DNA from: an uncultured Gemmatimonadales bacterium
GTDB taxonomy: Bacteria > Gemmatimonadota > Gemmatimonadetes > Gemmatimonadales > GWC2-71-9
Assembly: GCA_963821385.1 (NCBI GenBank)
Contig: CAWGDK010000005.1
Span: 488,907 to 552,906, forward strand
Length of the DNA stretch: 64,000 nt
Reading direction: 5' to 3'
Under the pieces are notes generated by a model. The model searched no databases, had not been told where the DNA came from, and saw nothing but the letters and a program-made list of their open reading frames with translations. A program made the translations under genes and the position numbers. This document shows positions 30,487 through 48,530 of the stretch, piece by piece (the stretch's first letter is position 1; each line of letters opens with the position of its first letter).

Positions 30487-31479
30487 GTGCCCGACCTGAG
30501 GACCAGCTATCTGGGTCTGCCGCTCGCGCATCCGGTCGTGGCATCGGCCTCGCCGCTTGGCAAAACGCTCGACGGCGTGCGGTCGCTGGAAGACGGCGGG
30601 GCGGCGGCCATCGTGCTGCCCTCACTGTTCGAAGAGCAGCTGATACGCGACAACGAGTCGTTCGCGCGCTACAGCGCCGTGGGTTCGGAGAGCTTTGCGG
30701 AGTCGCTGTCCTACTTTCCCGCCGTCCCGGGCGCCGCCCTCGGGCCCGACGAATACTTGAGGCTGGTCGCGGACGCCCGCGCAGCGGTGGCCGTGCCGGT
30801 GATCGCCAGTCTGAACGGGGCCAGCGAGCGCGGATGGGTCGACTTTGCCACGCTCCTGGAAGCGGCGGGGGCGCACGCGATCGAGTTGAACATCTTCTAC
30901 CTGCCGGTGGGCGCCGCGGCCACCGGGCGGGCGGTGGAGGATCGCTATGTCCAGGTCGTGCAGGCGGTGCGCAACGCCATCCACATCCCCCTGGCCGTGA
31001 AGCTCAGCCCCTACTTCAGCGCTTTCGGAGAGATGGCGGCCCGCCTGGTGACCGCCGGGGCCAACGGTCTGGTTCTCTTCAACCGGTTCTACCAGCCCGA
31101 CTTCGATCTCGAGCGACTCGAGGTCGTGCCGAACCTCGAGCTCAGCTCGCCGATCGAGATCCGGCTGCCGCTGCTCTGGATCGCGGTGCTGCGCGGGCGC
31201 CTCCAGGCGTCCATCGCCGCCACGAGCGGAGTCCACGCGCCCGCCGAAGTGGTGAAATACCTGCTCGCGGGCGCGGATGCGGTGATGACGACGTCCGCGC
31301 TCCTGCGCCATGGGCCGATGCACCTGCGAACCCTGGTGGACGGGCTGGTCGCCTGGATGGAGAGCCACCGGTACGAGTCCGTGGCCCAGATGCGCGGGGC
31401 CATGAGCCAGCAGAACGTCAGCGATCCCGAAGCGTTCGAGCGGGCGAACTACGTGAGGATCCTGCAGAGCTGGCGGTAG
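30487..31479 (+). CDS. dihydroorotate-dehydrogenase-like (class 1 DHOD/DPD PreA-like TIM-barrel) flavoprotein
   Basis: Last 330 aa of ORF 29401..31479, from the GTG at 30487. Motifs: YLGLPLAHPVVASASPL, IELNIF, PLAVKLSPYF, NGLVLFNRFYQPD, GVHAPAEVVKYLLAGADAVM. Confidence 0.8.
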   Translation: MPDLRTSYLGLPLAHPVVASASPLGKTLDGVRSLEDGGAAAIVLPSLFEEQLIRDNESFARYSAVGSESFAESLSYFPAVPGAALGPDEYLRLVADARAAVAVPVIASLNGASERGWVDFATLLEAAGAHAIELNIFYLPVGAAATGRAVEDRYVQVVQAVRNAIHIPLAVKLSPYFSAFGEMAARLVTAGANGLVLFNRFYQPDFDLERLEVVPNLELSSPIEIRLPLLWIAVLRGRLQASIAATSGVHAPAEVVKYLLAGADAVMTTSALLRHGPMHLRTLVDGLVAWMESHRYESVAQMRGAMSQQNVSDPEAFERANYVRILQSWR

Positions 31480-31517
31480 GGTGGTCCGAGAGGAAGGATC
31501 GGTGCATCGCGAGGCAA

Positions 31518-31567
31518 AGCAGGCCCTTCGCTACGCGCGCGTGCCGCGCGCTTCGCTCAGGATGACA
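31518..31567. repeat. single arm of the GTCATCCTGAGCG / CGAAGGACCTGC repeat family
   Basis: The sequence is agcaggcccttcgctacgcgcgcgtgccgcgcgcttcgctcaggatgaca. It matches the arms at 33339, 35207 and 37258 (same orientation) and at 35146, 35384 and 37124 (inverted). Confidence 0.7.
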
Positions 31568-31598
31568 CGCGCGTCTGGTCACACAAAAAAATAAAGGG

Positions 31599-31617
31599 GG
31601 GTTAGTCGCCCTAACCC
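31599..31617. terminator. short hairpin between convergent genes (possible bidirectional terminator)
   Basis: The hairpin is gggttag-tcgcc-ctaaccc, preceded by aaaaaaataaa. It overlaps the stop of the ADH gene. Confidence 0.3.
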
Positions 31618-32652
31618 AGGACTGCGACCGTCACGCCGACCCCGGGGAACGCATCCATCGCGGCGAGCTCAGCACCGACCTGCGAGAGGTCAATCGTTTT
31701 TCCCAACAGTTTTTCAGGATGGAGCCGTCCCTTGGTGATCAACTCCAGCATCCCAACGTATTCCCTCGCCTGCAGCCCGTGCGTCCCCCGGATTTCTAGC
31801 TCCCGCGCGATCACCTGACTCATCGGCACGGGCGGCTCGCTCTCACGGCCGAGGAGCAGCCCGACCTGGATGTGCCGGCCCCGCTTCCTGAGTGAGAGGA
31901 TCGAATTGCGGCAGGTGGCGGGGCTGCCGAGGGCATCGATCGAGACGTGGGCGCCGCCTCCCGTCAGCTCCCGGATCGCGCCCGGCACATCCGCTGTCGC
32001 CTTCGCATCGATCACGATTTCGGCGCCACAGGCGCGGGCCAGCGCGAGTTTGTCCGCGGCGATGTCGACGCCGATCACGCGCGCATCGAGCGCGCGCGCG
32101 ATCATGATGGCCGAGAGGCCCACGCCGCCGCAGCCGTGCACGGCCACCCATTCGCCGGGCTGCGTGCGGCCCTGCCCCACCACGGCGCGGTACGCCGTCG
32201 CGAAGCGGCACCCCAACAGCGCGGCGGTCGTGAAGGTCATGGCATCGGGGAGGCGCACCAGGTTCACGTCGGCGTACGGGAGGGCGACGAACTCCGCGAA
32301 GCGTGCCCCAGCCGGTGAAGCCCGGCTGGTAGTAGCGATCGCAGATCTGCTCGTCGCCCGCGCAGCAGCGCTCGCACGTGCCACATCCCATCGAGAACGG
32401 GACGGTGATCCGGTCGCCCTGTTTCCATTTGCGTACGTCTTTGCCCGTCTCGATCACGGTGCCGGCGAATTCGTGTCCCGGGACGTGCGGGACTTTCACG
32501 TCGGCATCGTGGCCTTTCCATCCGTGCCAGTCGGATCGGCACAGGCCCGAGGCTCCCACTTTGACGACGACGCCATCGGGCGGCGGCGTGGGATCAGGGA
32601 CGTCGACCAGACGCAGCGGACCTTCGAAGGCGTCGTAGCGAACGGCTTTCAT
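31611..32652 (-). pseudogene. zinc-dependent alcohol dehydrogenase (MDR family), one frame disruption near 32300
   Basis: ORF 31843..32652 ([36 protein letters not shown]) joins ORF 31611..32384 (FAEFVALPY..., [15 protein letters not shown]). Confidence 0.85.
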
Positions 32653-33284
32653 TTGCCTTGCTCGCGGTGTTCATGGACGGCGCGCCAGCAATACCAGGCG
32701 GCCACCGTCCGGTACGGCCGAAACCGTTCGCCCAGGGCCTCCAGCCGCTTGGGAGTCGGGATCTTGCGCAGACCGTAGGCGAGCGAATAGCCCAGCCGCA
32801 CACCGTAATCGCCCACCGGCCACACGTCCAAGCGGCGCAACTGAAAGATCAGAAACATCTCCGCCGTCCAGCGGCCGATGCCCCGCACCAGGGAAAGGCG
32901 CGTGATGATGTCCTCGTCCGAGCGCCGGCCGATGCCCCACAGTGGGACCGTCCCATCCGTCACCTTGGCGGCCAGATCGCGGAGCGAGGCCACCTTGCTG
33001 CGCGACAGCCCCACGGTGCGGAGCCGCCGCGGGTGCGTGGCCAGGACCGCTTCCGGAACCGGCTTCCCGTCGAACAGCGCGCAAAAACGCCCGTGGATCG
33101 CGGCCGCCGCGGCACCGGCGAGCTGCTGGTAATGGATGCTCTCCGCCAGGGCGAAAAAGTGGCTGCGGCCCGTTTGCGGCAGATGAAAGGGACCGGTCCG
33201 CTTCATGAGACCGGCCATTACGCGATCACGGCGGGCGATGGCCGCAGCCGCCGTCGAGAATGTGGTCTTCCGGTCTCGCGCCAT
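32649..33284 (-). CDS. HhH-GPD DNA glycosylase (DNA-3-methyladenine glycosylase II / AlkA-like)
   Basis: ORF 32649..33284 (211 aa). Motifs: GLSRSKVASLRDLA, LSLVRGIGRWTAEMFLIF, DVWPVGDYGVR. The start overlaps the ADH gene's end by 4 nt. Confidence 0.8.
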   Translation of the reverse strand: MARDRKTTFSTAAAAIARRDRVMAGLMKRTGPFHLPQTGRSHFFALAESIHYQQLAGAAAAAIHGRFCALFDGKPVPEAVLATHPRRLRTVGLSRSKVASLRDLAAKVTDGTVPLWGIGRRSDEDIITRLSLVRGIGRWTAEMFLIFQLRRLDVWPVGDYGVRLGYSLAYGLRKIPTPKRLEALGERFRPYRTVAAWYCWRAVHEHREQGK

Positions 33285-33338
33285 TCTCCCAGTTTAGCAT
33301 CTTCTAGAGGGCCAACGAACGACCTCTAGCCTCCCAAA

Positions 33339-33885
33339 AGCAGGTCCTTCGCTGCGCGCGCCTGCGGCGCGCTCCGCTCAGGATGACAAGCGCTCGCTCG
33401 GGCGAGTAGAGAAAAAAAAGAGAAGAAGGAAGCGGAGGATTTGTGCTCTTGTCTGCAAGGAAATGATCACAGTGGCAAACGCAACACCGCGTATCCGTGT
33501 GGCGCATGCGCACCTTCTACGTGTACATCCTGGCGAGTCGGTCCCGGGTGTTGTATGTCGGTGTCACCAATGACCTCGCGCGACGGGTGAATGAGCACAA
33601 GCAGGGCTTAGTCCTTGGGTTCACAACCAGGTATCGCGTCACCCGACTGGTTTACTTCTCGGAGTTCGCGGACATTCGGGACGCGATTGCGCGCGAGAAA
33701 GAGATCAAGGGTTGGGTGAGGTCGCGGAAGACCCGGCTGATCGAAGGCAGGAACCCCACCTGGGAAGATCTCTCCTTTCTCTTTTCCTAACCAACGCCGA
33801 AGCGCTGTCGCTCGCTCGGGTGAGCAGAAAAGAAGATAGACAGGAAGTGGAAGACCTTTCCCCGTTTCCTCCTTCTTTCTCAATG
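33339..33885 (+). mobile_element. putative autonomous copy of a GIY-YIG-encoding palindromic element
   Basis: The layout is: core arm, gctcgctcggg, polypurine tract, GIY-YIG ORF, polypyrimidine tract, gccgaagcg. The left flank is cgctcaggatgacaagcgctcgctcgggcgagtagagaaaaaaaagagaagaagg...ctgcaaggaaatgat. The right flank is ctcctttctcttttcctaaccaacgccgaagcg. The flanks are inverted copies of each other. An ORF-less version lies at 35207-35455. Confidence 0.45.
33506..33790 (+). CDS. GIY-YIG nuclease family protein (UPF0213-like, ~94 aa)
   Basis: ORF 33497..33790. Motifs: FYVYILASRSRVLYVGVTNDLARRVNEHK ... EKEIKGW. Confidence 0.85.
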   Translation: MRTFYVYILASRSRVLYVGVTNDLARRVNEHKQGLVLGFTTRYRVTRLVYFSEFADIRDAIAREKEIKGWVRSRKTRLIEGRNPTWEDLSFLFS

Positions 33886-33906
33886 ACGCGAGCCAGGGAC
33901 CTGTTA

Positions 33907-35073
33907 TTAGCGACTCCTGATGGGGACGCTCCATTGGAAGGTGCCCCACTCCATGACGAGCCGTCCAGCCGGTTCGATGCGAATGGTGAACTGCTCGGCG
34001 TTTCCAGGCAGGGAATCCACCGTCATGGGCCGGCGCGCGACGTCCTTGTCGGCGTGGTATTCCGTGCCCCACTGGCCGGACTGGCCGTTGATGACGAGTG
34101 AGACCCCGCCCCGGGTCGGGAGCGTCCACAGCGTGTACGTCCCCGGAGGCAGCGAAACGCCGGCGATCTCGATCGGCGCCCTTGTGGTCAGCTGCGTCGC
34201 GGCGTTGGCGCCGGTGCGCCAAACTTGGCCATAGGGGATCAGCCCGCCCACCAGCGTTCTCCCGCGCCGCGCTGGGCGGCTATAGTCGACGATCACGTCG
34301 GCGGTCCCCACTGTGGCGCGGACGGTGTCGCGCGGGCTGAGGGACGTGGCGACGCCCGTGCGTTGCTCATCGGCCGCGAAGCGCGCCGCCAAGGCGTCGA
34401 TATCCGGTACGTCGGTGATGCGCCGGACTTCCTGCTTGTACGTCGTTCCCGCACCTGAGTAGGAGGCCAGCCGGCCGAGCGTGTCCAGGCGCGCGGTGCC
34501 CGTCCCCGCCAGCCCGGTGCTGCTGATCGCGTAGGAGCCGTCCGGGTTGCGCGCGATGTCCGCGTACCCCACGTGGCCTTCGTCCCAGCCTTCGAAGAAA
34601 TACTGACCGATGCGGGCGCGCGTGCTATCCTGCTGCCGCCGCGCCGCGTCGAGCAGCAGCTCCCAGGTCGCGTACACGTACGCATTCCACGGCACGGTTT
34701 CGGCGTAGCGCTTGCGGTACGCGAACGGCCGCGTGCCCGCCGACGGCCCGCGGGTGAACACCAGGACCGTGTCGATGAACGTGGCGGTATGGTGGAGATG
34801 CCGCCCGTCGGGAGGCCCGTTCGGGATGTCGGTGTCCATCGACCAGTGCGTGATGACCCCGTTCGGCCCCAGTTCGGCCTCCCAGTGGCGGCGGGTCACC
34901 GTCGGGGAGCGGCCGATCGCGTCGCCGATGATGCGATGGCCGCGCCGGGTGACACGTTCCACCGACGTCGTATCGTTGCCGAGGACGGCCACGAATCCGT
35001 AGGTCTCAGGTCTTGCGCAGGCGCCGAGCGCCAGCAGCAGGGCCAGCCGTGCCGGAACAGAGGGCATGGACAT
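33907..35073 (-). CDS. lipoprotein with C-terminal DUF2911 domain
   Basis: ORF 33907..35073 (388 aa) with lipobox LLLALGAC. The C-terminus reads VDYSRPARRGRTLVGGLIPYGQVWRTGANAATQL...GTYTLWTLP...GQWGTEY, which matches DUF2911 as I recall it. Confidence 0.7.
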   Translation of the reverse strand: MSMPSVPARLALLLALGACARPETYGFVAVLGNDTTSVERVTRRGHRIIGDAIGRSPTVTRRHWEAELGPNGVITHWSMDTDIPNGPPDGRHLHHTATFIDTVLVFTRGPSAGTRPFAYRKRYAETVPWNAYVYATWELLLDAARRQQDSTRARIGQYFFEGWDEGHVGYADIARNPDGSYAISSTGLAGTGTARLDTLGRLASYSGAGTTYKQEVRRITDVPDIDALAARFAADEQRTGVATSLSPRDTVRATVGTADVIVDYSRPARRGRTLVGGLIPYGQVWRTGANAATQLTTRAPIEIAGVSLPPGTYTLWTLPTRGGVSLVINGQSGQWGTEYHADKDVARRPMTVDSLPGNAEQFTIRIEPAGRLVMEWGTFQWSVPIRSR

Positions 35074-35106
35074 CAGAACCTCGACGATTGGTGGTGTCGC
35101 GTCATA

Positions 35107-35460
35107 CGAACAGATCCTTCTTCTCTTTTTTTTCTAACGAACGCCGAAGCGTTGTCATCCTGAGCGTAGCGCGCGGAACGCGCGCGGAGCGAAGGACCTG
35201 CTTTCGTCGAACAGCAGATCCTTCGCGCCTGCGGCGCTCAGGATGACAAGCGCGCTCGCTCGGGTGAGCAGAGAAAAAAAAGATAAGGAGGAAGTGGAAG
35301 ACTTGTGCCCTTGTTCTGCAAGGAAATGATGATGGTGCCACCCTTCTTCCATTTCCTTTCTTCTTAACTCCCCGCCAAGGATGTCATCCCTTCGCTACGC
35401 TCAGGGCAGGCTCTGAGCGCAGCGCGCGGAACGCGCGCGGAGCGAAGGACCTGCTGTTCG
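35107..35460. repeat. nested cluster of the palindromic repeat family, including an ORF-less (MITE-like) copy at ~35207-35455
   Basis: A polypyrimidine tract (35120-35135) is followed by gtcatcctgagcgtagcgcgcggaacgcgcgcggagcgaaggacctgct (35146-35200) and its inverted partner (35207-35247). Next come gctcgctcgggtgagcagagaaaaaaaagataaggaggaagtggaagac...ctgcaaggaaatgat, a second polypyrimidine tract, and another core arm (35384-35455). Confidence 0.75.
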
Positions 35461-35548
35461 TGAGGAAGGTGTCAGGAGCCGTTCTCTCCTCTAGTGGTGT
35501 TACCGCGCACGGGTGAGGTTCGGACTAACCCTCTTATCGGAGACGACC

Positions 35549-37084
35549 ATGAGGTCTCTCTACCACGTGTCCCCGCGTACTGCCCTCGCAGGCGTAGCGG
35601 TGGTACTCGCGTCCGCTGGGTGGTCTGCCCGCGCCGCCGCACAGGACGGGCGTGCCGCCCTCGATCCCATCACCAGTGCCGTCATCAACCATCCTATCAC
35701 CACGTCCTCCACCGCCGCGCGAGCCCACTTCCTCATGGGCGTGCGCGAGGCCGATCTCGGCCGTTTCCTCGAGGCGAACGTTCACTTCCAGGCGGCGGTC
35801 GCGGCCGATCCGAACTTCGCCTTCGGCTATCTGAACGTCGCCAACACCGCGAACTCGCTCGCCGAGTTCAAGGCGAACCTCGCCCTCGCCGAACAGCACG
35901 CGGCCGGCGCCTCGGACGCCGAGCAGATCCAAATCCAGATGGCGCGCAAGGGCTTCGACAACGACATCGCGGGCCAACTGGCGCTCGCCCAGCAGTTCGT
36001 CGCGAAGTATCCCGCCAGTCCACGCGCCTGGCTGGCGCTCGCCGGGGCGCAAGCGGGGTTGAATCGCAACCCAGAAGCCCGGGCCTCGCTGACCAAGGCC
36101 TTGGAGCTGGCGCCCCGCATGTACGTCGCCCACGCGACGCTGGGCAACAATTACATCTTCGGGGAGCCGCGCGACTTCGCCAAAGCGCTCGAGCAGATGC
36201 AGGCGGGCGTGGCGCTGGCGCCGAACGAGCCCAATGCGCACATGTTTGTGGGCGACGCGTACCGCGCGCAGCGCAATCTCGAAAAGGCGCGTGACGAGTA
36301 CAGCCGAGGTCTCGCGCTCGACCCGCACAACGGGATCCTGCTGGTGAAGCTCGGGCACGCGAACACGTTCCTGGGCAACTACGCCGCGGCGCGGGCGAAC
36401 TACGATTCCGCCGAGGCGGTCGCGCCGCCGGCGCAGCGGGCGGGCTTCGCCCCGTTCCACGCCTACGTCAGCGTCTATGCCGGCGACCCCGCGGCGGCGA
36501 TCGACGAGCTCAATCGACTGGTCGGCGCCGTCGACGGCATGGGGGTCACCGATCCCACCGCCTCCAAGGTGAACGCGCTCACGAATGTCGTCGTGATCGC
36601 GATCCATACGGGCAACCGGGCCGCGGCGGAGCAGGCCCTCACGCAGCTCAAGCCGTTGCTGATGCAGCAGGCCGACCAGGCCGGCAACCCGGCATTCCGG
36701 CGCGGCCAGGAGGCGCAGGTCGCGTACTTACAAGGGTGGTTGGCGGCGAAGAGCGGCGACTACGCGGCCGCGCGGGAGCACGCCGATCACATCAACGCGC
36801 TGTTGGCACCCGACGCGAACCCGCGCAAGCTCGAGCCGATGCACCAGCTGATGGGATTCATCGCGCTATATCAGCGGCAGTACGGCCAGGCCGCCGACCA
36901 CTTCCGGCAGGGCAATCCGTTCGATCCGTACGTGAAGTATCAGCTCGCGCTCGCGACGGAGGGCGCGGGTGATGCCGCCCAGGCCCGGAAGCTGTTCCGC
37001 GAAGTCGCCGACTACAACTTCAACGCGCTCGGCTTCGCGCTGGTGCGAAGGGACGCCCAGCAGAAGGCCGGCGCGGGAACGTAG
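35549..37084 (+). CDS. secreted TPR-repeat protein
   Basis: ORF 35513..37084 with the likely start MRSLYHV at 35549. It has a signal peptide ending ARAAAQ and multiple 34-aa TPR-like units (e.g. AHMFVGDAYRAQRNLEKARDEYSRGLALDPHN). Confidence 0.8.
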   Translation: MRSLYHVSPRTALAGVAVVLASAGWSARAAAQDGRAALDPITSAVINHPITTSSTAARAHFLMGVREADLGRFLEANVHFQAAVAADPNFAFGYLNVANTANSLAEFKANLALAEQHAAGASDAEQIQIQMARKGFDNDIAGQLALAQQFVAKYPASPRAWLALAGAQAGLNRNPEARASLTKALELAPRMYVAHATLGNNYIFGEPRDFAKALEQMQAGVALAPNEPNAHMFVGDAYRAQRNLEKARDEYSRGLALDPHNGILLVKLGHANTFLGNYAAARANYDSAEAVAPPAQRAGFAPFHAYVSVYAGDPAAAIDELNRLVGAVDGMGVTDPTASKVNALTNVVVIAIHTGNRAAAEQALTQLKPLLMQQADQAGNPAFRRGQEAQVAYLQGWLAAKSGDYAAAREHADHINALLAPDANPRKLEPMHQLMGFIALYQRQYGQAADHFRQGNPFDPYVKYQLALATEGAGDAAQARKLFREVADYNFNALGFALVRRDAQQKAGAGT

Positions 37085-37355
37085 GCGTTCTTTCTCCTCT
37101 ATTTTTCCCATACGGACGCCGGAGCGTTGTCATCCTGAGCGCAGCGCGCGGAACGCGCGCGGAGCGAAGGACCTGCTGTTGAACGCCCTCGTGGACGGCG
37201 CGCGGAGAACTCAGGCCTTCGCTGCGCTCAGGGCAATTCCTTCGCTACGCGCGCACTAGAAGCAGGTCCTTCGCTTCGCGCGCTTGCGCGCGCTCCGCTC
37301 AGGATGACAGGCCGCTCGCTCTCTCGAGAGAAAAGAAAGGGAAGCGAAGAACCTC
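37085..37355. repeat. cluster of the palindromic repeat family (long inverted repeat)
   Basis: The left arm is ...cggacgccggagcgttgtcatcctgagcgcagcgcgcggaacgcgcgcggagcgaaggacctgct (37124-37176). A partial copy lies at 37205-37255. The inverted arm is agcaggtccttcgcttcgcgcgcttgcgcgcgctccgctcaggatgaca (37258-37308), followed by ccgctcgctctctcgagagaaaagaaaggg. Confidence 0.75.
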
Positions 37356-37379
37356 AAGGCAGACTTCGATCAGCTGGAA

Positions 37380-37510
37380 GCCTTCGCCGGGACCGGATTC
37401 GCTCCCTTCACCAAGAGCCACAGCATGATCGCCAGTTCCCCGAACAGCGCGGGTTGCGCGTAGTTGAATATGGTGCTCGTGCTGCTGCACGAACAACAGG
37501 GTCAGCGGGC
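37380..37510 (-). pseudogene. possible C-terminal remnant of a DUF4386-like membrane protein
   Basis: My own translation gives ...STIFNYAQPALFGELAIMLWLLVKGANPVPAKASS*. It is bounded upstream by an in-frame stop and is only ~43 codons long. Confidence 0.3.
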
Positions 37511-37521
37511 GATGGCGCCCG

Positions 37522-40158
37522 CTATCGATTGGCCTCGTCCACGGCCTGCTTCATCCGGTCCACCCAGTGCGGCGCGACGCGGAGGTAGGCGGCTGGCTTG
37601 TCGATGGCACCCCGCAGGTAGATGACACCACCGCCGGGCGCGAGCGCGAACGAGGGTCCGTTGGTGTCTCGAAACTGCGGCGCGTCGGCCCACCGGCCCC
37701 GATTGCGGAGCGGCGGATTCGCCGTGGGATCGACGGTCACCCGCTCGAGCCGGGTCCGAGGTCCGTCCGTGATCGGCACACCCAACTCGCGCGCCGAGAG
37801 CCACTGAATGTCCTCCAGATTGCCGGCCGCCGCCTGGAACCGGCGCCCGTCGCGCGGGAGAGGCTCGATCCAGGCCTCCGTATAGGCGGCGTTGGTGTAC
37901 GCGATCCAGCGCCCGTCGGCGGAAGGAAAGGCGAACCCGGTGTTCGAAAACAGCGAGTCGACGGTGACCGGCCGGCGGTCGAGTCGCAGCACGTCTGCGG
38001 CGTTCGGCTCCCAGCGGATCCCGAAGACCCGGTCGTCAGGCATCCAGCGCAACGCCTCGAAGTGCGGGAGGTACAGCAGGAACTCCGGAGGGCCGGAGCG
38101 GTCCGGTGAGCCCACGAGGATCGAATCGTTGGCGCCGAACAGCAGCCGGTCGCCCGCCGGGCTCCATATCGCATGGGTGATGACCGGCCGCCGGATCCAG
38201 GTCTGGTATCGACCGGACGCCAGGTCGTAGATCCTGAGCTCCATCCCTTCGAGCCCCTCGACCACCGCAGCGAGGCGACGGCCGTCGGGGCTGTACTCGA
38301 AGGTGAGGAAGGCCTCTCTGCCGAGGTGGCAGCGTGTCGATTCCCGCCTCGCTGAGGTGAACCAGGTGCCCGACCGACCGGTTGTCCCCCTGGGCGTACA
38401 CCAGGGTACCGGACGGCGGCGATGGCATAACTCGCCGTCCCCGGTGAAATTGGCGAGGCCGAGTCCACTCGCCATCCGCACGGCCCGACCCACCCGACCG
38501 GTCTCGAGGTCCACCGGCGCCGCGAGCAGATCACCGCCGATGGAGACGTAGGTCAGATAGCGCCCGTCGACGACCCGGAACGACGAACCGAACACCCGAT
38601 TGCTGTCCTCCGCACGCCAGAACCGCTGCTCGAACGCGGTGTCCCCGACCGCGATCCGGTAGCCCCATTTGGCCCCTCCCCCGCCACAGAGCAGGCCGTC
38701 TCCTCCCGGAGTCAGCGCCTGGCCCTCGCAGTATCCGGATCGGGACCGACGAGACCGGTCCCGCGCTCGGGATCGATCCAGCGGGCCACTGGCCGCCGCT
38801 GTCGATGGCGAGGATCCGGCCTCCGGAGGGCCAGAGCAGCCTCCGCAGGACTCGACGCCGCGACCGATCGTGGTCGCGGTGCCGCCTTCGACGGGGATGA
38901 CCTCGACGGTCCACCCGCCGTCCGTCAGGCGGAAGAACGCGATGCCGGTTGCCGTCGGGCGAGATCGACCGGCTGGGATCCGTCATCGGTGCCGGGGATC
39001 CGCCGCACGGTGGCATCGAGCAGTGAGCGATACCAGAGCTCGCTCCGGCCCTGCCGCACCGTCTCGTACACGACGAAGTCGCCGCCGGGCGAGACGGCGA
39101 ACCCGACGTCCTGGGCGACCGTCATCATGCCGGCCGAGTCGGGGAGGCCGACGTCGTACTCCACGGGAACACCCGCGCGCTCGGACCGGGCGAGCATCGA
39201 CGCCAGCAGGGCGCCGACGGCGATCCCCGCCGCGCCCGTGGCGGCGATCCGGAGATCACGCCACCAGGGGCGCCTGGAGCCCTGGGCCGCCGTTGTTCCG
39301 GTTGAGGTCGCCGCGACAAACGCCGGATTCGCGAGCGCGTCGGCGAACGCCTTCGCGCGCGTCGAACCGGTCGGCCGGGAGCTTCTCCAGCGCCTTCGCC
39401 AGCGCCGCCGCCACGTTCGGCGGCACGCTCTTCCGCAGGCTCGTCACCGGCGCCGCCGGCTCGGCGATGATCTTCATGATGATCTGCTGCGCCGAGCCAC
39501 CCGTGTGCGGCGGCTGCCCGGCCAGCATCTCGTACAGCACGCTCGCCAGCGAGTAGATGTCGCTGCGCGCCGTGATCTCCTTGTCCGCCGTCGCCTGCTC
39601 CGGGACATGTAGTGCGGCGTGCCCAGACAGAGCCCGGTCTCGGTCATGCGTCCGCCAGCCGCGGCGGACACGGCGAGCGCGATGCCGAAGTCCATCACCA
39701 TCGGCCGGCCATCGTGCAGCAGGATGTTCTCCGGCTTGATGTCGCGGTGGATCACGCCGTGGCGATGGGCGTAGTCGAGCGCGTCGGCGACCTCGGTGGT
39801 GATCCGTACCGCTTCGTCGATGCGCGAACTGGGTCTCGCGAGTGAGCTTCTCGCGGATCGTCTCGCCCTCGATGTAGGGCATGACGTAGTAGAGGAACCC
39901 GCCGGCCTCGCCGGAGTCGAACAGCGGCAGGATGTGCGGATGGCTGAGCGCCGCGGTGGTCTTGATCTCCTGGACGAACCGCTCGGCGCCGAGCACGGCG
40001 GCGAGCTCGGGCTTCAAGACCTTGATGGCGACCTTGCGGTCGTGCTTCAGGTCCTGGGCGAGGTAGACGGTGGCCATGCCGCCCCGGCCGAGCTCGCGCT
40101 CGAGGCGGTAGCGGTCGGACAACGCGGCGGCTAGACGCTCCATTCCATCGATCATCAT
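37522..40158 (-). pseudogene. Hanks-type Ser/Thr kinase fused (via a TM segment) to a TolB/PD40-like beta-propeller; at least 8 frame disruptions
   Basis: The kinase part is in ORF 39256..40158 (LGRGGMATVYLAQD, VAIKVL) and ORF 39474..39755 ([24 protein letters not shown]). The TM segment is IAATGAAGIAVGALLAS (my own translation). Propeller pieces are in ORFs 38925..39197, 38531..39016 and 37522..38595 (SPDGNR, YSPDGRRLA, WSPAGDRLLF, FPSADGRWIAY). Confidence 0.8.
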
Positions 40159-48373: not shown

Positions 48374-48383
48374 CCCTCGGCGC

Positions 48384-48530
48384 CACCAAGCCGACGGCGG
48401 CTGGCGCCGGTCCCGCGTCCACCAGCCGCTTGTGGACCGGCTCGACCCGGAAGTTCAGTCCTTCGAGCGTTCGCGAGCCGAGCAGGACGAGGTCTCCCGG
48501 TTCGCCGAACACCACATCATCTCCGGTTCG
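48384..48530 (-). pseudogene. diverged C-terminal fragment of a retropepsin-like aspartic protease
   Basis: ORF 48312..48752 contains DDVVFGEPGDLVLLGSRTLEGLNFRVEPVHKRLVDAGPAPAA. Compare DLVVFAETGDMTLLGAHSLEGLNLKIDPVRKELIPAGPVIAA in the gene at 58275..58652. Confidence 0.45.

Follow-up and report, generated by a model that had tools for sequence, protein, structure and literature searches.

The Locus

This paper deals with a short tract, 31.5-37.3 kb, within 64,000 nucleotides of contig CAWGDK010000005.1 from an uncultured Gemmatimonadales bacterium (assembly GCA_963821385.1); this whole stretch is called "the window" below. Five consecutive intergenic regions of the tract hold repeat clusters, each cluster lying between genes. 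Between two of them sits an ssnA-like gene (33506..33790, plus strand), which encodes a putative nuclease of 94 amino acids with a single GIY-YIG domain; it is the only GIY-YIG open reading frame (ORF) of the window. An interpretation of the bare letters, here called the sequence-only reading, had put the clusters and this single gene at the positions that we find, and had joined them into one mobile or homing family. We here discuss what the gene and its repeats are likely to be.

The motif GTCATCCTGAGCG is present in six exact copies, all at 31554-37308, and has no exact match elsewhere in the window. If up to two mismatches are allowed, 10 matches are obtained, compared to 2.89 expected from shuffles, and 10 was reached in 0 of 100 shuffles. 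The motif AGCGAAGGACCTGC yields eight matches at up to two mismatches, all at 31519-37275, with 0.85 expected. A repeat search of the window recovered a core of ~52 nt in both orientations (87-96% complementarity), a small hairpin, GCTCGCTCGGGTGAGCAG, in four copies, a purine tract together with its pyrimidine mirror, and a block, TCTGCAAGGAAATGAT, which is shared by 33452 and 35315. Read on the strand that displays GTCAT, the half-sites of the core are 5'-TGTCATCCTGAGCG...AGCGAAGGACCTGC-3', and its scheme is GTC-ATCCTGAGCG-variable inner hairpin-AGCGAAGGAY-CTG. Folding, a check that the sequence-only reading had proposed for the palindromes, gave a clear answer: the folds of 35100-35460 surpass those of shuffles by far, with z -7.2 and -8.7 on the two strands.

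The unit that carries the gene is defined by comparison with a close relative, L006, which encodes the identical protein in flanks of 93-96% identity. When intact, it measures ~520 bp and consists of left core, small hairpin, purine tract, a leader of ~65 nt, ORF, second hairpin and inverted right core. Its left core as found in the window, AAAGCAGGTCCTTCGC-GC hairpin-GCTCAGGATGACA, occupies 33337..33389 on the minus strand and is identical in L006. All further modules are on the plus strand. The small hairpin GCTCGC-TCGG-GCGAGT, seen in the repeat search and in folding, follows at 33392..33409, the purine-rich tract, likewise from the repeat search, at 33408..33440, and the 5' leader at 33441..33505. 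The latter contains a conserved block, TCTGCAAGGAAATGATCACAGTGGCA (33452-33477), common to the ORF-less copies and to L001, L002 and L006. The gene itself ends, over its last ~20 nt, in codons that mirror the purine tract as pyrimidines. The right-end hairpin, AACGCCGAAGCG, and the first three nucleotides (GTC) of the right core make up 33791..33809; there the core stops, its remainder being missing in the window and intact in L006 (3302-3349). The bracketing of the gene by inverted modules that the sequence-only reading described is hence correct for the inner modules, while the right core is truncated. On both sides the unit is intact in L006, L001 and L002.

The purine tract of ~30 nt (33408-33440, 33826-33856, 35270-35302 and 37327-37355, plus pyrimidine mirrors) recurs as a constant part of the Gemmatimonadota-type ends. 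It is also found in L001, L002, L088 and L133 and lies outside the published NTS and SRM repeats discussed below. Such tracts had been remarked upon as unusual in a genome of ~70% GC; the tracts are there, but the GC content of the window is 66.9%.

A copy of the unit at 35208..35455 (plus strand) shares the left 130 nt and the right end with the gene unit and has no ORF, just as the sequence-only reading had it. Its left part comprises a short-form left core (35208-35249, minus sense), the hairpin (35254-35271) and the purine tract (35270-35302); its right part the leader block (35315-35340), the pyrimidine tract (35341-35372) and the right core (35380-35455), into which 23 nt are nested, the same insert as in the right end of L001. 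A similar ORF-less fusion is seen in L088, another Gemmatimonadota genome. Directly behind the truncated right core, a mini unit specific to the window (33810..33906, plus strand) strings together a small hairpin (33810-33827), a purine tract (33826-33856) and a pyrimidine tract (33862-33885) and ends with the core tail GGGACCTG at 33893-33900, followed by TTATTAG.

The Protein and the Ssn Family

The GIY-YIG match of the protein (Pfam PF01541, E 1.2e-15) spans residues 7-78, and other domains are not found. An AlphaFold2 model displays a beta-beta-alpha-beta-alpha core. Among solved structures the minimal UPF0213 domains 1zg2 and 1ywl are nearest, followed by Slx1 and the N-terminal domain of UvrC; 1zg2, Slx1 and UvrC are also the best matches of the model in the PDB. 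NCBIfam and PADLOC hold no family for the protein.

Searching PLSDB with the protein (tblastn) gave E 2e-18, and in BLASTP the protein is 48% identical over 87 amino acids to its homolog in Neisseria gonorrhoeae (E 3e-28). The gonococcal gene is flanked by exact copies of the published NTS. Recognition of these flanks as dRS3/NTS identified the system: it is the Ssn system of Chenal et al. 2025 (PMC11893778). These authors counted as SsnA relatives proteins with E < 1e-10, and the match to the gonococcal homolog lies far below this value.

The characterisation of the Ssn family dates from 2025 and is mainly work on Neisseria (PMC11893778). One or both flanks of the genes of this family hold inverted repeats of 20-50 nt that fold into hairpins. 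SsnA of N. meningitidis (NMV_0044/NMB0047) has 94 amino acids and a single GIY-YIG domain (CDD cd10448). It binds the NTS hairpin solely as single-stranded DNA (ssDNA), and on one strand only, and cuts just upstream of it. Double-stranded DNA (dsDNA) and RNA are not attacked, and RNA is not even bound. By restricting incoming ssDNA that carries the repeat, SsnA modulates and limits natural transformation in Neisseria. Among thousands of homologs across phyla, at least one flanking Ssn-related motif (SRM) is found in 71% and SRMs on both sides in 42%; conversely, the gene is present in 81% of the genomes that have over 200 SRMs. The authors likened NTS-ssnA-NTS to an insertion sequence (IS) and to REP/RAYT (all PMC11893778). 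The association of gene and repeat and the REP/RAYT analogy, at which the sequence-only reading had also arrived, are thus sound and already published there; its idea is a rediscovery.

In 81 unique relatives Y7 is conserved in 96%, Y17 in 99%, R27 in 100%, H31 in 99%, E64 in 100% and N83 in 98%. All six residues, of which the first five are catalytic, are present in the window protein; cleavage in the family depends on the tyrosines and on the Glu that binds the cofactor. Judged by its sequence, the product of 33506-33790 is a member of the Ssn family.

The Repeat Hairpin

The hairpin of the repeat is predicted at -23.3 kcal/mol. At the paired positions ATCCY/RGGAT the bases covary: T-A was counted 120 times, C-G 30 times, C-A nine times and T-G never, and TC/GA variants also occur. 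The stem is really base-paired. A structure at the level of RNA was considered and dropped, given the absence of T-G at the covarying pair and the failure of SsnA to bind RNA (PMC11893778). A search of Rfam with E up to 1 revealed no family. Its sole match, a plant miRNA precursor (MIR8788) at 37134-37303, reaches 30 bits against a threshold of 124 bits and is an artefact of the long inverted repeat built from two cores.

Mutagenesis in the Ssn paper has defined which bases matter: cleavage depends critically on the three just upstream of the palindrome, and binding on the C that directly follows it (PMC11893778). When cores were selected on their inner part only, the upstream consensus came out as TGTCAT (63-80%) and the downstream one as A-Y-C-T, with the C at 75%. 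GTC directly upstream of the palindrome and C directly after it are therefore kept, matching the critical bases (PMC11893778).

Gene and Repeat in Other Genomes

The tie between repeat and gene was examined in 80 metagenome loci that encode relatives of 54-87% identity; their GC content ranges from 0.39 to 0.70, and human gut contigs are included. With at most one mismatch and at most 300 nt from the gene as the criterion, a half-site is found in 65 of the 80 loci, and on both sides in 21. Near the gene the density is 4.29 half-sites per kb, beyond 600 nt it is 0.059 per kb, which amounts to a 73-fold local enrichment. In absolute numbers, 191 matches lie within 300 nt, compared to 1.45 in shuffles. 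The tie that the sequence-only reading proposed is thus borne out far beyond the window. Relatives of 87% and 79% identity live in unrelated contexts (PepX/glyoxalase and ankyrin/serA), yet they have the inverted cores and the same leader block, and relatives of the window gene are bracketed by inverted cores in three other genomic contexts. In more distant relatives the cores have the opposite polarity and directly abut the ORF.

Homologs in cultured Planktothrix, Spirosoma, Azospirillum, Photobacterium and Neisseria (PLSDB) are also flanked by GTCAT-hairpin repeats: GTCATTCTGAGTGAAACGAAGAATCTC in Planktothrix, GTCATCCCGAGGAACGAGGGATCT in Spirosoma, GTCATYCCCGCGMAGGCGGGRATCC in Azospirillum and Photobacterium, and CGTCATTCCCGCGCAGGCGGGAATCC, the neisserial dRS3/NTS, in N. 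gonorrhoeae. Searching PLSDB with the DNA of the gene unit gave no match. On plasmid p1 of Planktothrix agardhii (L214, 17347-20619) the ssnA homolog and its arrays are placed between a type IIL MmeI restriction-modification gene and the DISARM gene drmA, i.e., inside a defence island.

Most copies of the motif have no gene beside them. A scan of species-representative genomes yielded at least 120 motif-bearing blocks of 8 kb, and among the matches listed only one of 120 contains a GIY-YIG ORF and 119 do not; most copies are therefore solo. The listed blocks belong to Acidobacteriota, Gemmatimonadota, Armatimonadota, Planctomycetota, Chloroflexota, Bacteroidota, Patescibacteria, Proteobacteria and others, and several metagenome-assembled genomes contribute four to five of them each. 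What the sequence-only reading had named as fatal to its own idea, namely motifs scattered at random or unique to the window, other GIY-YIG genes without them, or elements conserved at orthologous positions, is not what emerged.

Among the solo copies inverted doublets are frequent, and so are tandem arrays of the 5' half-site. The latter consist of the 5' half-site only (GTCATCCTGAGCG plus a spacer of 8-13 nt), have a period of 21-29 nt and up to eight units, and are often mirrored across both arms of a doublet; examples are L044 2612-2880, L053 4550-4660, L069 7383-7575 and L214 1198-1260 and 1839-1900. Such arrays would fit with cycles of cutting and repair close to the upstream side of the hairpin. 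A second, unrelated repeat family, CCCCCTCTCCCGAAGGGAGAGGGGGACAGGGGGTGAGGAC, adjoins Ssn-type repeats at L006 4760-4800, L001 5680-5760, L048 and L133 3510-3540, and is absent from the window. A viral origin was also considered and rejected: just three IMG/VR contigs carry the motif (L007-L009), with one core copy each, and the phage homologs are distant (35-38% identity).

Could the repeats be ordinary host elements, i.e., terminators, mRNA stabilisers or protein-binding sites, which have a GIY-YIG gene as neighbour by coincidence? Every copy is indeed an intergenic, GC-rich hairpin, and several are followed by short T runs. A scan for promoters and terminators, however, found no site in the repeat copies or in the leader block (no sigma-70 consensus promoter in 33441..33505 either), and the number of terminator-like sites in the region does not exceed that of shuffles. 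Nor does Rfam know the repeat. Coincidence would further have to produce the 73-fold enrichment at 80 independent loci from several phyla, and it is the sequence as well as the structure that is conserved across phyla. Finally, direct binding and cleavage have been published for the Ssn family (PMC11893778). This explanation was already disfavoured, and we consider it extremely improbable.

Alternatively, the repeats might be miniature inverted-repeat transposable elements (MITEs) that derive from, and depend for their movement on, an unrelated transposase with its gene elsewhere; the GIY-YIG gene would be a passenger caught between two copies. The inverted architecture and the ORF-less copies would suit this idea. 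What does not suit it is the constancy of the partner: from Neisseria to Cyanobacteria, Bacteroidota and Gemmatimonadota the GTCAT-hairpin repeats accompany the same protein family, while the neighbours vary. Moreover, no transposase gene was called in the listed loci, and target-site duplications were not seen. A passenger gene is thus very unlikely.

Neighbours and Further Copies in the Window

Seven genes are found at 31.4-37.6 kb, and every intergenic region among them carries copies of the one repeat family. A DHO_dh-like gene (plus strand) ends at 31479. It converges with a zinc alcohol dehydrogenase (ADH) gene (31611-32652, minus strand), and between the two lies a solo core, an SRM-like hairpin of the long form (31516..31567, minus strand). 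In the window two overlapping frames (ORFs 31611-32384 and 31843-32652) make up the ADH gene, where L006 has a single ORF of 346 amino acids; the split gene is either a pseudogene or the victim of a long-read indel error. The HhH-GPD glycosylase gene (32649-33284, minus strand) comes next; its call is shorter in L006, 128 amino acids compared to 211 in the window.

Beyond the unit and a DUF2911 gene (33907-35073, minus strand) there is a gene-less module of the right-end type (35107..35204, plus strand), made of a pyrimidine tract (35107-35137), hairpin and core (plus sense, 35152-35204). The ORF-less copy and a TPR gene (35513-37084, plus strand) follow. Behind the latter we find another right-end type module (37086..37181, plus strand) of pyrimidine tract, hairpin and core (plus sense, 37127-37181), then degenerate partial core copies (37211..37254, strand undefined), detected in the repeat search and as matches to AGCGAAGGACCTGC, and a left-end type module (37260..37355, minus strand) with core (minus sense, 37260-37309), palindrome CTCTCGAGAG and purine tract (37327-37355). 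The last of the genes (37522-38595, minus strand) bears no family label.

The sequence-only reading had also mentioned remnant genes near the clusters. What we see is one C-terminal gene fragment of 33 codons adjoining a cluster (37373..37471, minus strand; stop at 37370-37372), in a place where window and L006 differ. Its match to DUF4386 (positions 191-210 of 210, E 0.018) is weak and below the Pfam cut-off.

Signs of Mobility

One documented case comes from a cultured genus. In Azospirillum lipoferum 4B (AZO_p3, 254018-257278; L216) a block of ~540 nt, doublet-gene-doublet, is inserted between sufB and sufC, inside the suf operon, and disrupts neither gene. In A. ramasamyi, A. oryzae, strain B510 and A. 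brasilense the two genes are separated by a spacer of 90-130 nt devoid of the repeat. The site, occupied in 4B but vacant in the four relatives, shows that the related unit inserts as a block. The comparison of filled and empty sites asked for in the sequence-only reading has thereby found a positive answer. On the replicons of 4B 33 doublet copies are counted, compared to three at most on other Azospirillum records.

Within Gemmatimonadota, the window can be compared to L006. Unit plus adjacent spacer (33229-33809) differ by one mismatch in 581 nt, the flanking genes by 4-7%. This near-identity is no more than suggestive of mobility, because a segment of the ADH gene (32110-32610) is also little diverged (seven mismatches in 500 nt). 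Two segments of the window, 33810-33907 and 35087-37504, are absent from L006. The second comprises the TPR gene and both clusters flanking it, lacking at the orthologous place of L006 (4534-4928); it is a repeat-gene-repeat block that differs between relatives. Left of the ADH gene synteny breaks: L006 641-789 corresponds to window 48378-48526, 17 kb away, which indicates a rearrangement beside the solo core at 31516-31567. No target-site duplication and no precise termini could be recognised at the units of L006, L001 and L002, nor in Azospirillum, the spacer around its insertion being diverged. For the window's own locus, an empty site was sought via the neighbours of DUF2911 homologs (75-86% identity); synteny was not conserved there, and a clean comparison was not obtained.

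A free-standing GIY-YIG homing endonuclease would explain such movement in a different way: it would break both strands of an uninterrupted repeat, and recombinational repair would copy it in. The GIY-YIG domain is a common one among homing endonucleases (PMC1564403), and co-conversion predicts precisely that an element and its adjoining flank are near-identical between diverged genomes. The enzyme, however, hardly qualifies. It has 94 amino acids and no DNA-binding domain, it is closest to minimal UPF0213/Slx1-like domains and not to I-TevI, and SsnA has no activity on dsDNA (PMC11893778). Also, the flanking repeats are both complete copies instead of split halves of one target, and the motif is met on three IMG/VR contigs only. 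Homing is, accordingly, a highly improbable explanation. Of the mobile or homing family that the sequence-only reading envisaged, mobility is backed by the diverse contexts and by the Azospirillum pair; cleavage of dsDNA, as homing would require, was looked for in the family and not found (PMC11893778).

What the Locus Most Likely Is

Taken as a whole, the data are best explained by an Ssn family nuclease with its cognate SRM-class cores in an IS-like gene unit, accompanied by ORF-less copies and solo ends. We would put the probability of this explanation at roughly 85%.

Some observations weigh against it. The window copies, eight cores in all, fall within 6 kb. For the species that carries P0077, four contigs from different samples (of six in all) have the gene in one and the same position; this shows stability, not ongoing movement. 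A further objection concerns the repeat itself. The published search pattern for SRMs, HGTCWYN(0-2)YYVSBRHN(0-5)WNVSBRGN(0-2)RNCYNB, an operational tool built from 29 genomes, has no match in the window or in L001, L002, L006, L133, L147, L155, L190, L214 and L217; it finds eight, six and four copies in the Neisseria, Photobacterium and Azospirillum loci, respectively. By this operational pattern the window repeat is not an SRM. Because the pattern misses the window while the flanking GTC and C are kept, we take the repeat for a divergent SRM class, whose stem is longer and has internal loops around a variable inner hairpin.

The mechanism may be pictured as follows. The Ssn protein would recognise the hairpin repeat on one strand of ssDNA and cut a few bases upstream, a chemistry adopted from the Neisseria literature. 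The cores would be its cognate SRM in this Gemmatimonadota lineage; the mosaic around them, made of small hairpin and purine/pyrimidine tracts, is specific to the lineage. Gene and two inverted ends form the IS-like unit of ~520 bp, and ORF-less copies (35208-35455 and the mini unit 33810-33906) and solo ends fill the neighbouring intergenic regions. That the window protein cuts the window repeats, and that nicking by an Ssn protein aids the spread of repeats and gene unit, is what we infer.

One may go further. The Ssn gene and its two hairpin ends could be an autonomous mobile element in which a GIY-YIG single-strand nuclease replaces the transposase; 35208-35455 and the L088-like units would then be non-autonomous derivatives, and GTCATCCTGAGCG...GCGAAGGAYCTG would represent an uncatalogued SRM family spread through Acidobacteriota, Gemmatimonadota and other soil phyla. 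This proposal is tentative, and we would not bet on it. The same must be said of its mechanistic version, a new type of transposon, in which nicking of the ssDNA hairpin ends by the nuclease powers copy-out and insertion, and the ORF-less copies are MITE-like passengers served in trans. A new transposon would extend the best explanation, not exclude it. It is favoured by the IS-like architecture with inverted ends of ~50-100 nt, by the ORF-less derivatives in the window and in L088, by the filled and empty sites of Azospirillum with the burst of doublets in the gene-carrying strain, by the near-identity of unit and spacer in window and L006 amid more diverged flanks, and by the presence of the gene in unrelated contexts, including the interior of the suf operon and a place between defence genes. 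On the other hand, we know of no GIY-YIG domain with strand-transfer activity. Neither a target-site duplication nor precise termini can be defined, mosaic recombination alone could account for the near-identity, as the ADH segment illustrates, and the position of the gene is stable across samples in one species. Moreover, SsnA has been shown solely to cut ssDNA (PMC11893778).

To the published system we add a Gemmatimonadota/Acidobacteriota repeat class, the extended mosaic ends, the ORF-less derivatives and the filled/empty site. The repeat class keeps the bases important for binding and cutting though it escapes the search pattern. The locus and Azospirillum together add gene-less derivatives, a clean filled/empty site in a cultured genus and a burst of repeats in a gene-carrying strain, and so offer concrete material for asking if the spread of the repeats is the work of the Ssn nucleases themselves. 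In addition, they provide new pairs of enzyme and site for the ssDNA-cutting applications that have been proposed for the Ssn family.

Comparison with Known Systems

Free-standing GIY-YIG homing endonucleases such as I-TevI and Seg share the catalytic domain and the appearance of small selfish genes. They carry DNA-binding domains and cut dsDNA, whereas the window protein is a bare domain from a family that cuts ssDNA only.

The IS200/IS605 elements with their PATE and MITE-like derivatives have in common with the Ssn-type units that subterminal hairpins are recognised on ssDNA, that a single gene makes up a tiny unit and that ORF-less derivatives exist. Their ends, however, are not inverted repeats, and their enzyme is a Y1 HUH transposase.

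The neisserial intergenic mosaic elements (NIME), which combine dRS3 and RS repeats, show the same alternation of a short palindromic core with other modules and the same bracketing of genes. The sequences of the modules differ, and the array of the window is small, five intergenic regions in 6 kb.

Next are REP/BIME with RAYT. There, too, a single-copy nuclease gene is flanked by inverted short hairpin repeats, the repeats are far commoner as solo copies and inverted doublets (REPIN-like), and the hairpin is recognised on ssDNA with a conserved 5' flank. The folds are unrelated, GIY-YIG here and HUH/Y1 tyrosine transposase in RAYT. Also, the Ssn-type repeat is conserved in sequence across phyla, whereas REP are species-specific, and a chemistry of the transposition type is not known for the Ssn-type enzyme.

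The closest relative is the Ssn system with its NTS and SRM repeats. The protein of ~94 amino acids with a single GIY-YIG domain is 48% identical to the neisserial homolog; the gene has flanks of inverted hairpin repeats, with GTCAT at their start and a C next to the end of the palindrome; solo copies are many among the genome blocks scanned, intergenic and clustered around genes, and the gene unit is IS-like. The differences lie in the repeat and in the documentation. The window repeat misses the published SRM pattern, its stem has internal loops of the GA/GA type and encloses a variable inner hairpin of 6-36 nt, and its ends are extended by small hairpin and purine/pyrimidine tracts. Gemmatimonadota, whose core is also that of Acidobacteriota, are not named in the main text of the Ssn paper (PMC11893778). 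ORF-less derivatives and a filled/empty site are documented here.

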